From assembly GCA_031414595.1 (NCBI GenBank), contig JANNVX010000064.1:9283-73282 (forward strand): a DNA stretch of 64,000 bases, in the 5' to 3' direction. This document shows positions 13,278-15,946 of the stretch, piece by piece. Below the pieces are notes generated by a model. That model worked only from the letters and a program-made list of their open reading frames with translations, was not told the origin of the DNA and did no database searches. The position numbers and the translations under genes are program-made. The DNA comes from Deinococcales bacterium. GTDB taxonomy: Bacteria > Deinococcota > Deinococci > Deinococcales > JAAFIG01. Numbering within the stretch: position 1 is the stretch's first letter; the number at the start of each line of letters is the position of its first letter.

Positions 13278-14120
13278 TCAGACCCCACAACCCGAGACAA
13301 GACGTTGCACAAATTTCTTGCCATCCCATTGCACTGCAAAAGTAGCCGAGTCTTCGTAAATGGCTTCAAAGTACAACACCTCGAGTTTGCCATCGCCGTT
13401 TAAGTCTAGGACATTGACCAAATCCCAAACATCGGGGTTGTTTTGCATTCCAGCCTCAATATCGGCATCAGTCGTGGTTTTTAAGTGGATTTCCTGACCC
13501 AAAGAAATAGTTTGGACTTTGCCAGCCACGATTTTACGCACCAACAGCAGACTGTAATCGCCTTTTTCGCCTCGAGCGCTTGGGAATAAACCACTGCGGT
13601 AGCCTCGAGTCGCCGCAATAATAATTTCATCTTGTTTGTCGTTGTCAAGGTCAGTTTTAATCAGGCTGGTAATCTTCACTTCGGGGTTCTTAAGTCCTAA
13701 TTTCTCGAGGTATTGGGAAACCACGGCTCGGTATGTGCCATTATCGTTAGACAATACGGTCACGGCTCGAGGACGAAGATTCCAAGTGGCGTTGGTGGCA
13801 ATCACCCAGTTCTTTGCGGCGGGAACAGGATTTAATTTTACGCCGTAAGTTTCTTCGCACGGCACACCGTAGGATTCTTTGGCTGTGCCAACACTGGCGC
13901 TAGTGATTTTACCGCCCATTGTCCAAAGCGAATTGTATTTCATGCCAGCCGGAGCAACGGCTTTTTTACCGTCTAACCAAGTTGAACCCGACACGCCGCC
14001 TAAGACTTCAAAAACATTTTCTGAAGTTATCGGCGGATAACCAACTAAAAAAGTGGCGCTATTTGGTGCAGCCGCCACACCCAAGGACAAAACAGCCAGT
14101 AATGGTAAGAGTTTTTTCAT
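13278..14120 (-). CDS. Secreted hypothetical protein with Ca-binding DxDxDG-like loops
   Basis: Signal peptide MKKLLPLLAVLSLGVAAA; DLDNDKQDE and DLNGDGKLE loops. TATGCT lies 6 nt before ATG 14120. Confidence 0.75.
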   Translation of the reverse strand: MKKLLPLLAVLSLGVAAAPNSATFLVGYPPITSENVFEVLGGVSGSTWLDGKKAVAPAGMKYNSLWTMGGKITSASVGTAKESYGVPCEETYGVKLNPVPAAKNWVIATNATWNLRPRAVTVLSNDNGTYRAVVSQYLEKLGLKNPEVKITSLIKTDLDNDKQDEIIIAATRGYRSGLFPSARGEKGDYSLLLVRKIVAGKVQTISLGQEIHLKTTTDADIEAGMQNNPDVWDLVNVLDLNGDGKLEVLYFEAIYEDSATFAVQWDGKKFVQRLVSGCGV

Positions 14121-14141
14121 TACTTCAGCATACACGATTTT

Positions 14142-15743
14142 TTAATTCTGCTCGAGAATTATTTTGTCCTGTACCAAAATTCGGCGTGTGGCAATCGTCT
14201 CAAGTAAGCGCCTGTCATGCGAAGCCAGTAACAATGTACCCGTATACTCGAGTAATAATTTCTCGAGAGCAGCAATTGCATCAGTATCCAGATTATTGGT
14301 GGGTTCATCCAAAATCAGCAATGAAGCTCGAGTGACCGATAACCGCGCTAAGGTTAAACGGGTGCGTTGCCCACCAGATAAAGTAGCAATGACTCGGGAT
14401 GGTTCTTTGGGCAACCTTAAACTCGCCAGCAACGCATAGATTTCCTTGGTTTGCAAATGCGGATTAGCAGACAGCAGCGCCTCTTCAAGGGTGATGAATT
14501 CGTTGATTTCCTCAGTGTTCTGGGCTGCCCAGTAGACAGTCACATTCTGCCCGAAAGTCACATTGCCCGTAAACCCGAGTTGCCCTAGAATGGCTTTGAT
14601 TAAGCTGCTCTTACCACCACCATTTGCTCCGACCAACGCAACTTTTTCACCACGTCCAATAAATAAATTAACCTTCTCGAGAATTATTTTTTCATCACGC
14701 TGCACCGTCACACCCTCGAGCTTAAGAACTTCAAACGCACCGACTGGCACAGCATCCAACTGAATTTTGGTCAAAAAACCATCTTCAAAAGGCTTCTCGA
14801 GTTCGCCCATGTGTTCAATGCGTTTCTCGAGTGCCAGCGCACGTTTGCCTTGCTTATGCGACGCTCGGTTCATCAAATGAAAGGCAGTGGTGGCATCACG
14901 GCTTCCCACTCGGTGCTTATTTTCGCTTCTCGAGGCTTGGGCAATGGCGGCTTGGCGCTCAAGGGCTAATTGTTTGATTTTACGTTCATGATTTTCAAAC
15001 GCCAGCAATTGGTTTTCTCGAATGGCTTTTTTAAGCGCCATTGCTTGGCTAAAATTCCCTTCGTACAAGCTGACTTTTTGCCGCTCGAGTTCATAACAAC
15101 GCGTCACTGTCGCATCTAAAAAAGCCCTGTCGTGCGAAACAATCATAAAACCCGCGTCAGAAGCTAAAATCCAATGCTCAAGCCAAGTTAAACTGTCTAA
15201 ATCCAAGTGATTGGTTGGTTCATCCAACAAGTAAAAATCGGCTGGCTGAATCAGTAACCGAGCCAGTAATGCGCGGCGTTCCTGCCCACCAGAAAGCGCG
15301 ATACTCGAGCCTGAGCCTTCTAAACCCAGTCCAGCCAAGATTTCCTCAGCCCGAATTTCAAGGTCGTAGCCACCCGCAATTCTAAATTCTTCTTCTAGCA
15401 GTGCGTACTCGGTAAGATGCTCAGGGCTTGGATTCTCGAGGGCGACTTGGGCTGCCTCGAGTTTATGTTTCAAATCTTTAAGCGCATCGGGCAACACCAC
15501 ATCACGCAGCGCACCTGTCTCGAGGGTCGTGCGTTGTGCGAGATACGCCACTCGCCCAGTCAATGTCACTGTGCCAGTATCAGGTGGCTCAAAACCAGCC
15601 AGAATTTTGAGCAGCGTGGTTTTACCACTGCCATTACGACCCAGCAGCGCAACCCGTTCGCCCATCTGTAACTCGAGGGCGACATCATCAAAAATTAAAT
15701 TGTCTGCAAAGCGCTTTTGCGCTCCACGCATGATTAAGCTCAC
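14142..15743 (-). CDS. ABC-F family ribosome-binding ATPase, probably of the antibiotic-resistance type
   Basis: Two ABC domains (GRNGSGKTT/LSGGQERR/LLDEPTNHLD and GANGGGKSS/LSGGQRTR/ILDEPTNNLD), no TM segments, long linker. GTG at 15743 follows GGAGG. Confidence 0.9.
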   Translation of the reverse strand: MSLIMRGAQKRFADNLIFDDVALELQMGERVALLGRNGSGKTTLLKILAGFEPPDTGTVTLTGRVAYLAQRTTLETGALRDVVLPDALKDLKHKLEAAQVALENPSPEHLTEYALLEEEFRIAGGYDLEIRAEEILAGLGLEGSGSSIALSGGQERRALLARLLIQPADFYLLDEPTNHLDLDSLTWLEHWILASDAGFMIVSHDRAFLDATVTRCYELERQKVSLYEGNFSQAMALKKAIRENQLLAFENHERKIKQLALERQAAIAQASRSENKHRVGSRDATTAFHLMNRASHKQGKRALALEKRIEHMGELEKPFEDGFLTKIQLDAVPVGAFEVLKLEGVTVQRDEKIILEKVNLFIGRGEKVALVGANGGGKSSLIKAILGQLGFTGNVTFGQNVTVYWAAQNTEEINEFITLEEALLSANPHLQTKEIYALLASLRLPKEPSRVIATLSGGQRTRLTLARLSVTRASLLILDEPTNNLDTDAIAALEKLLLEYTGTLLLASHDRRLLETIATRRILVQDKIILEQN

Positions 15744-15788
15744 GTGAACCTCCAAGAAAAAAGGGTGAAGACCTCTTGCCTATGGTGA

Positions 15789-15806
15789 TTAACGCAAACG
15801 TGTCAT
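15789..15806 (-). promoter_or_regulatory. Leader uORF MTRLR upstream of the ABC-F gene
   Basis: AAAGGA-7 nt-ATG ACA CGT TTG CGT TAA, 45 nt before the ABC-F start. Confidence 0.7.
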
Positions 15807-15946
15807 GCAGTAGTCCTTTGAAATAATTAAAGCCGTTGACTCGAGCCAATTCTCGAGGGAGTGGTTTAGATTAACCCAAAATGTGCAGTAAAATCATTAC
15901 GAAAAATGGCGTATCTCTCACCCGGATTTTTGTTAGCATACGCGGC

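Follow-up and report, generated by a model that had tools for sequence, protein, structure and literature searches.

A five-codon open reading frame and a single hairpin as a putative ribosome-sensing attenuator of a candidate ribosome-protection ABC-F gene in Deinococcales

Why would a gene for an ABC-F ATPase be preceded by an open reading frame of only five codons? The question arises in a 64-kb stretch of DNA from a Deinococcales bacterium (the window), where an ABC-F gene follows a short leader containing the upstream open reading frame (uORF) MTRLR. The original prediction regarded this as an inducible ribosome-protection gene placed under a macrolide-sensing uORF. Our comparative analysis indicates that the leader (15857-15738) is probably a ribosome-sensing translational attenuator of a candidate ribosome-protection factor of the antibiotic-resistance type (ARE-type). 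The general mechanism of attenuation is likely, whereas specificity for macrolides, although plausible, is put forward tentatively because tiny uORFs such as MIN of the vmlR leader sense lincosamides and pleuromutilins (PMC9226507).

All features of the leader and of the ABC-F gene lie on the minus strand, and coordinates are those of the window. In the list below, SD1 and SD2 are the Shine-Dalgarno (SD) sequences of the uORF and of the ABC-F gene, MFE stands for minimum free energy and NBD for nucleotide-binding domain.

15857-15840, minus strand: 5' stem-loop CUCGAG-AAUUGG-CUCGAG, 33 nt 5' of the uORF start
15819-15814, minus strand: SD1, AAAGGA, 7 nt before the uORF ATG and single-stranded in the predicted fold
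15806-15789, minus strand: uORF, ATG ACA CGT TTG CGT TAA, encoding MTRLR-stop with the R-L-R (+X+) motif
15799-15772, minus strand: 5' arm of the helix in MFE folds, made of GUUUGCGU (uORF codons 3-5), AAUC (stop and 2 nt), CCA, AGG and AAGAGG
15788-15744, minus strand: spacer of exactly 45 nt between uORF and ABC-F gene, holding UCUUC, CACCC and a U6 run
15764-15738, minus strand: 3' arm of the helix from MFE folds and covariation, made of CCUUUU, UCU, UGG, GGUU and ACGUGAGC, and including SD2 and GUG
15762-15757, minus strand: U6 run, after the weak inner hairpin AAGAGG/CCUUUU
15753-15749, minus strand: SD2, GGAGG, 5 nt 5' of the GTG start codon (15743-15741)
15743-14142, minus strand: ABC-F ATPase gene, 533 aa, GTG start, with two NBDs and an extended helical hairpin (residues 231-312)

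The SD-preceded uORF of five codons ending in RLR-stop and the 45-nt spacer with UCUUC, CACCC and the U6 run had been described in the original prediction, and each was found in its place. The listing of open reading frames opens the ABC-F frame at TTG 15755, upstream of GTG 15743; the latter is preferred as the start because of its SD spacing and the N-termini of the orthologues (M-S-L-...). A 53-aa open reading frame that covers the leader in another frame (15849-15688) was discarded, because insertions and deletions among the relatives break that frame.

Is the uORF a conserved element? Upstream DNA was compared for 80 orthologous loci, which represent three families of the order and are not independent where they come from one genus. 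At 79 of the 80 loci, a mini-uORF of 2-9 codons preceded by an SD sequence lies 27-92 nt 5' of the ABC-F start; an SD-like site with the spacing of SD1 occurs in as many, and SD2 is kept in all 80 as GGAGG, GGAGA or GGGGG. The conservation of the uORF upstream of orthologues, a check proposed with the original prediction, is thereby answered in its favor. The commonest lengths are 5 codons (26 loci), 6 codons (23) and 3 codons (22), and 3-6 codons account for 71 of the 80 loci. Start codons swap among ATG, TTG and GTG while the frame is kept, with ATG and TTG alternating within the window's own family (f1). Across both strands of the 4.49-Mb genome, mini-ORFs of the form M(T)RL[RK]-stop number 23, three of them with an SD-like site; judged by sequence comparison, the occurrence of the uORF by chance is unlikely. 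The encoded peptides are distributed as follows, f2 and f3 being the other two families.

Family f1, 14 loci: MTRLR (nine loci), MTRLRSSP (stop lost), MRLR, MTRRR, MRERR, MTRYRC
Family f2, 10 loci: MRAAR, MRNAR, MRVNR, MRDSH, MRNAH, MEDAR, MEIAR, MIDSR, MNDSI
Other genera of f3, 7 loci: MTERR, MTQAR, MEDPR, MTDPQA, MTDLTL, MRQQQSL
Large Deinococcus-like genus, 49 loci: MRL-stop (13 loci), MRN-stop, MRW-stop, MRR-stop, MRF-stop, and the six-codon form MR[LPFH]x[PLS]L-stop

Within f1, the peptide is maintained through synonymous changes (CGT/CGC, TTG/CTG, ACA/ACC/ACT), and R-x-R occurs at all 14 loci, with a variable middle residue (L, R, E or Y) and shifts of register. The most widespread peptide feature of the whole set is an Arg at position 2 or 3 (66/80 loci). 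At one locus of the same genus as the window (L003, ABC-F 85% identical), a change of the uORF stop from TAA to TCA gives MTRLRSSP-stop, and the RNA helix described below is retained.

How might so small a uORF influence the gene behind it? In each of the first 20 leaders folded (20/20), SD2, the spacer and the ABC-F start are paired with a segment that runs from the last uORF codons through the stop codon to 5-10 nt beyond it, in a helix that encloses a variable inner hairpin. In the window, GUUUGCGU (15799-15792) pairs with ACGUGAGC (15745-15738) and AAUC (15790-15787) with GGUU (15750-15747), followed by the pairs CCA/UGG, AGG/UCU and AAGAGG/CCUUUU. The original prediction had proposed UCUUC/CACCC as the partner of the GGAGG ribosome-binding site; according to both MFE folding and covariation, the main partner of SD2 is instead UCACC directly 3' of the stop codon (15788-15784). 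Only when the uORF is covered does GGAGG pair with CCUUU, from CACCCUUU, in a weak fallback hairpin.

Because the folding z-score of the whole window leader is only -1.8, support for the structure was taken from the comparison of relatives. Cognate arm duplexes average -14.9 kcal/mol, against -10.6 kcal/mol for shuffled 5' arms and -9.7 to -12.5 kcal/mol for arms swapped between families. In the 19 leaders that share a register, the 10-bp helix is 84% paired, and six of its ten pairs carry compensatory changes, for example CGU:ACG to CGC:GCG, UAA:UU to UGA:UC, and CGC:GCG to CAC:GUG. The arm-anchored alignment used for these counts was fitted to the proposed helix and is hence biased toward it, for which reason shuffled and slid controls were supplied: none of 500 shuffles matched the observed scores, and sliding the partner by 1-3 nt lowered pairing to 25-42%. 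RNAalifold returned no consensus structure from a mixed MAFFT alignment of 27 sequences, because pairing registers differ between genera, and Rfam gave no meaningful match for the window leader or for the leaders of five relatives. RNA folding, which had also been suggested as a check, thus revealed a helix that hides SD2 and the start of the ABC-F gene and is supported by covariation.

The effect of a ribosome on this helix was calculated by modeling it as an unpaired footprint of 28 nt (P-site codon -12 to +15). Because MFE folding under constraint with long flanks produced spurious partners for SD2, ensemble opening energies were used. With the footprint on the uORF, opening the stretch from SD2 to the start codon costs 7.5 instead of 14.4 kcal/mol (mean of the 80 leaders) and, in the window, 8.1-8.8 instead of 16.5 kcal/mol; with the 5' arm shuffled, the value is 9.4. 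When the footprint lies at codon 4 or 5 of the window uORF, it covers 15799-15781, which corresponds to the 5' arm, and lowers the opening energy from 16.5 to 8.1. Since the footprint halves the opening energy of SD2, a ribosome held on the uORF is therefore expected to unmask the ABC-F start.

From these elements a simple switch can be proposed. In the off state, SD2 and GUG would be locked in pairing with the 3' half of the uORF, the stop codon and a few nucleotides after it, and little ABC-F would be made. In the on state, a ribosome-targeting drug would arrest a ribosome on the mini-uORF so that the 5' arm is covered, and the parked ribosome would free SD2 and the start codon for translation of the ABC-F gene; a ribosome that terminates quickly would let the helix re-form. 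A single hairpin would suffice for translational attenuation of this kind. The product would then bind the ribosomal E site and extend its long hairpin toward the peptidyl-transferase center (PTC) and the tunnel, relieving the effect of the drug. Drug-dependent stalling, the class of the drug and the resistance function are parts of this scheme that we infer from the leader and the protein.

Could the leader also act at the level of transcription? No intrinsic terminator was predicted in the window leader, U6 run included, and no terminator/antiterminator pair was found there. The U6 run was rejected as an intrinsic terminator for the window, where the stem before it is weak and A/U-rich. In a sister genus (g5; L005:3099-3118, minus strand, and other loci of this genus), a GC-rich, terminator-like hairpin formed by TGCCCCGAAACTTTGGGGCG and TTTCTTGATT and followed by UUUCUUGAUU occupies the homologous place, where the window has the weak stem and U6. 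For the sister-genus hairpin, which would lie out of reach of a ribosome on the uORF, an antiterminator was sought and none was found. Transcription attenuation is thus possible for the relatives of the sister genus and is not claimed for the window; the window's family may be in the course of losing such a layer of control, or may never have completed it.

What kind of protein would be placed under this control? Pfam assigns two ABC_tran domains and one ABC_tran_Xtn domain to the ABC-F protein, which has both NBDs in one chain and no transmembrane domain. Its AlphaFold2 model (predicted local distance difference test, pLDDT, 92.9; predicted template modeling score, pTM, 0.86) shows two NBDs joined by a long helical hairpin, whose helices comprise residues 231-280 and 284-312. 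In Foldseek, matches 1-25 were all ABC-F proteins, mostly solved on ribosomes, with the ARE-ABCF VmlR2 (8buu) first, followed by PoxtA, YbiT, EttA and Uup. This ranking was rejected as a means of discriminating resistance from housekeeping proteins, as YbiT, EttA and Uup score nearly as well.

The interdomain linker is more informative. As background for linker length, structure alignment and phylogeny, 67 distant ABC-Fs from many phyla were taken from among the matches listed (30-37% identity; motifs YLLDEPTN and DEPTN[NH]LD). The long linker noted in the original prediction was confirmed against this background: 168 residues separate His204 of the NBD1 H-loop from Gly372 of the NBD2 Walker A motif, compared with a median of 142, and a linker this long occurs in two of the 67 distant ABC-Fs among the matches listed. 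All 26 extra residues are located at the tip of the hairpin, where residues 266-304 span 38 positions against a median of 12, and the long linker is common to all orthologues (168-172 residues). Measured between the NBD1 signature and the end of NBD2, the protein equals VmlR, VgaL, VgaA-LC, MsrE and LsaA in length to within about 5 aa; over full-length alignments, it is 14-15 aa longer than Uup and YbiT of E. coli.

Family models and phylogeny separate the protein from housekeeping ABC-Fs. It misses the cutoffs of the housekeeping hidden Markov models for Uup (274 against 900 bits), EttA (254 against 599), the YbiT type (248 against 762) and the YheS type (216 against 917). In a maximum-likelihood tree of 90 ABC-Fs, obtained by a quick search and containing few named resistance references (Msr(I), OptrA and PoxtA), the 11 Deinococcales sequences form one clade (SH-aLRT, a Shimodaira-Hasegawa-like approximate likelihood ratio test, 99), separate from EttA, Uup, YbiT and YheS of E. 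coli. Its sister group (97) is an actinobacterial clade with an equally long linker and a similar tip motif (...R.GDNDK...), in which a leader of the present kind was sought at L073, L107 and L171 and none was found. Conservation of the uORF and the position of the protein relative to the housekeeping ABC-Fs were the points on which the original prediction could be contradicted by computation, and neither result contradicted it. By these sequence criteria, the ABC-F belongs to a distinct subfamily with a resistance-type extension, within none of the characterized families, and it is a candidate ARE-type ribosome-protection factor that would confer resistance by drug displacement. The idea of an inducible ribosome-protection gene has thus gained a conserved uORF, a sequestering helix and a long linker, while induction and resistance themselves stay inferential.

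Several results weigh against this interpretation. Outside f1, R-x-R ([RK]x[RK]) is found at only one of 66 loci despite the shared leader architecture, and so the motif is not a defining feature of the leader element. Where CGC has become CAC, which replaces the last Arg by His, the opposite arm has changed from GCG to GUG in compensation; the conservation of this codon is therefore partly structural and not peptidic. In the model, SD2 is unmasked equally well whether the footprint lies at the uORF start codon or at codon 4-5, so that geometry does not single out the +X+ site. The protein also misses the cutoffs of the named resistance families (Msr, Vga, Lsa, Sal, OptrA, PoxtA, CplR and the producer type), with Vga giving the best named score (278 bits, cutoff 725), compared with 264 against 680 for Msr and 243 against 800 for the producer type. 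The top NCBIfam model, NF000355 ("ribosomal protection-like ABC-F", 369 bits, cutoff 380), was rejected as evidence of resistance and given no weight, because it also ranks first for both other ABC-F proteins of the genome. Finally, the ABC-F gene is a vertically inherited core gene in a housekeeping neighborhood: it adjoins purE-purK and an unrelated pair encoding a secreted protein and an ABC ATPase, and it does not lie in a mobile element. Of the 301 genomes of the order that were sampled, 103 carry an orthologue; these include f1, nearly all of the high-GC family f3 and part of f2, whereas two small-genome families in this sample lack it. The chromosomal resistance ABC-Fs VmlR, LsaA and Lmo0919 are likewise species-core genes (PMC9226507).

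The strongest alternative retains the attenuator and changes its inducers. Drugs acting at the PTC, such as lincosamides, pleuromutilins and streptogramin A, or phenicols and oxazolidinones, would take the place of macrolides and hold ribosomes on the start codon of a very short uORF or immediately beyond it, in the manner of the vmlR uORF (MIN). The predominance of uORFs of 3-6 codons would suit such a mechanism, as it recalls the 3-codon vmlR uORF, which senses lincomycin and retapamulin at initiation (PMC9226507). The efficient unmasking by a start-codon ribosome and the near-absence of +X+ outside f1 point the same way, as do VmlR2 and PoxtA as closest structural neighbors. Many uORFs, moreover, carry Thr, Ala or Ser in the position penultimate to a later codon (MT..., ..AR, ..SH), and these residues in the penultimate position form the arrest context of phenicols and oxazolidinones. 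Initiation-trapping drugs need no specific peptide, however, and the vmlR uORF tolerates MDN, MDK and MRK, whereas the peptide of f1 is kept through synonymous changes with R-x-R at every locus, which argues for sequence-specific arrest. The Arg at position 2 or 3 in most loci, in turn, fits the macrolide arrest contexts +X+ and xRx (PMC12583479). On balance, induction by PTC drugs in place of macrolides appears unlikely.

A second alternative dispenses with drugs altogether. A housekeeping ABC-F that resolves difficult steps of peptide-bond formation or termination would regulate itself by feedback: the Arg-rich uORF would be the difficult sequence, and lingering ribosomes would unmask SD2 whenever ABC-F activity or peptidyl-transferase performance in general is low. 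Ribosomes are inherently slow on the +X+ motif. Vertical inheritance, the near-universal presence of the gene in the Deinococcus-like family, its housekeeping neighborhood and its position outside every named resistance family agree with such a role, and among solved structures Uup and YbiT give the best sequence scores. Against it stands the hairpin tip, 26 residues longer than the median of the 67 distant ABC-Fs listed, within a linker longer than those of Uup and YbiT; such an extension is a mark of resistance factors. The uORF peptides are also too diverse across families for one intrinsic arrest sequence. Furthermore, the genome already encodes two other ABC-F paralogues, one of 740 aa with a C-terminal extension of about 200 aa and no family assignment (C110:3725-5947) and a Uup-like protein of 623 aa with a C-terminal coiled coil (C67:82966-84837), both without a comparable uORF or structured leader. 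Drug-independent feedback is accordingly considered quite improbable.

Very improbable, lastly, is constitutive coupling or a passive structure, in which the hairpin sets a low basal level or serves as an RNA thermometer and routine uORF translation melts it to an extent set by the supply of ribosomes, without any signal from stalling. In its favor, the modeled helix is opened by whichever ribosome occupies the uORF, and the window holds no terminator/antiterminator pair. Against it, the conservation of SD1, start codon and frame in 79 of 80 loci, the enrichment of Arg at positions 2-3 and the synonymous maintenance of the f1 peptide indicate selection on the uORF peptide, which passive unfolding would not need. 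Attenuation by Arg-tRNA or amino-acid supply was dismissed because the ABC-F is unrelated to arginine metabolism.

The preferred reading, a ribosome-sensing translational attenuator, can be compared with known systems. Leader-peptide control of resistance ABC-Fs is well studied in Firmicutes and Actinobacteria, with vmlR, msrD, lmo0919, vga(A), cplR and lmrC as examples, and the msr(A) leader carries an MRLK-type motif. In cat-86 and cmlA, a single stem-loop hides the ribosome-binding site of the resistance gene, the leader open reading frame enters the left arm, and a stalled ribosome melts the stem. The window leader resembles the cat-86/cmlA type in its single-hairpin design and differs from it in drug class (chloramphenicol), leader length and product (acetyltransferase or exporter).

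The closest parallel at the peptide level is ErmDL, the leader of erm(D) (MTHSMRLR...). Both leaders have an SD-preceded open reading frame with R-L-R, and in both an arrest at the Leu codon would open a structure that hides the ribosome-binding site. A minimal derivative of ErmDL, MRLR, has a natural equivalent in the relative L012, which encodes exactly MRLR-stop. In contrast to ErmDL, the window leader precedes an ABC-F gene and not an rRNA methyltransferase gene; its uORF has five codons and ends right after the motif, it forms a single hairpin in place of alternative pairs, the two leaders share no sequence homology, and its arrest is a prediction. MRLR is the shortest functional +X+ open reading frame, +X+ arrest requires Arg or Lys at -1 and +1, and erythromycin also stalls ribosomes at the first Arg codon of M-R-L (PMC12583479). 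By analogy, these findings fit both the MTRLR and MRLR peptides of f1 and the M-R-L core of the Deinococcus-like genus.

At the level of gene organization, vmlR of B. subtilis is the nearest counterpart, being a chromosomal core ABC-F gene with a tiny SD-preceded uORF (MIN) within a stem and an SD-sequestering hairpin (PMC9226507); the MRL-stop uORFs of the Deinococcus-like genus are of equal size, at 3 codons. Control of vmlR depends chiefly on an intrinsic terminator with an antiterminator and on NusG pausing, whereas the window leader has no predicted terminator and the end of its uORF pairs directly with SD2 and the start codon. The macrolide-resistance ABC-F gene msrD is induced by drug-dependent stalling on its leader MsrDL (MYLIFM) (PMC10314930). 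A short leader peptide in front of an ABC-F gene is thus common to msrD, msr(A) and the window, although the peptides differ, msrD is subject to transcription attenuation, and the Msr model score places the window protein outside the Msr family. By analogy, the window leader would work like the ErmDL and cat/cmlA attenuators and the uORF leaders of vmlR and msrD, and it is homologous to none of them.

Some further observations concern the surroundings of the switch. A stem-loop about 32 nt 5' of the uORF start occurs in 70 of the 80 leaders, compared with 37 of 80 shuffled windows. Its stem varies by lineage (CUCGAG/CUCGAG, CUCGGG/CUCGAG, CCAGG/CCUGG, CCGGG/CCCGG, CUCAGG/CCUGAG), and its loop is mostly U-rich (UUU, UUC). 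It probably sits near the 5' end of the transcript and could serve in mRNA stabilization or factor binding. The 4.49-Mb genome contains 23,235 copies of CTCGAG itself where 972 would be expected, an excess of about 24-fold, and 383 of them lie in the window; other 6-bp palindromes are nearly absent from the genome, namely GGGCCC (0), TGCGCA (2), and CGATCG, GACGTC, CGCGCG and GGCGCC (3 each). About 20 nt past the ABC-F stop begins an open reading frame of 281 aa (13278-14123, minus strand) with a signal-peptide-like N-terminus and without a Pfam match, which, from its position, may be co-transcribed with the ABC-F gene. In L002 (G005:C476:2360-3952), a congeneric orthologue with 96% identity and a leader identical to that of the window, a single in-frame TAA interrupts the ABC-F gene; this could reflect a pseudogene or an assembly error.

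In the literature searched, no description of an ABC-F leader in Deinococcota was found; the leader would be a new case of a known type of resistance switch. It is very compact, as a 5-codon open reading frame provides both the putative sensor peptide and the anti-SD strand, and the f1 leader is a natural counterpart of the minimal MRLR arrest open reading frame engineered in structural work on macrolides. The 80 leaders constitute a comparative set of candidate arrest peptides of 3-7 residues. A more speculative extension, which we hold to be improbable, is that the leaders of the order make up a natural collection of minimal arrest peptides (MRL-stop, MRLR-stop, MTRLR-stop, MRNAR-stop, MR[LP]xPL-stop) co-diversified with one ABC-F lineage, or else that the peptide is an intrinsic arrest relieved by the ABC-F. 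Were the former true, the peptide of 3-7 residues in each lineage would tune the same single-hairpin switch to a different ribosome-targeting compound produced by neighboring organisms; were the latter true, the leader would be a drug-independent feedback sensor of peptidyl-transferase performance. In either case, peptides whose length falls far short of the macrolide site in the tunnel would act as specific natural sensors, and for MRL-stop the arrest would take place while the A site is occupied by a stop codon.

The ribosomes of Deinococcus radiodurans and Thermus are classical structural models for antibiotics that act on the 50S subunit. If the proposed attenuator is real, a drug-inducible ribosome-protection factor in D. 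radiodurans would be directly testable and would bear on the drug-sensitivity data of this species.

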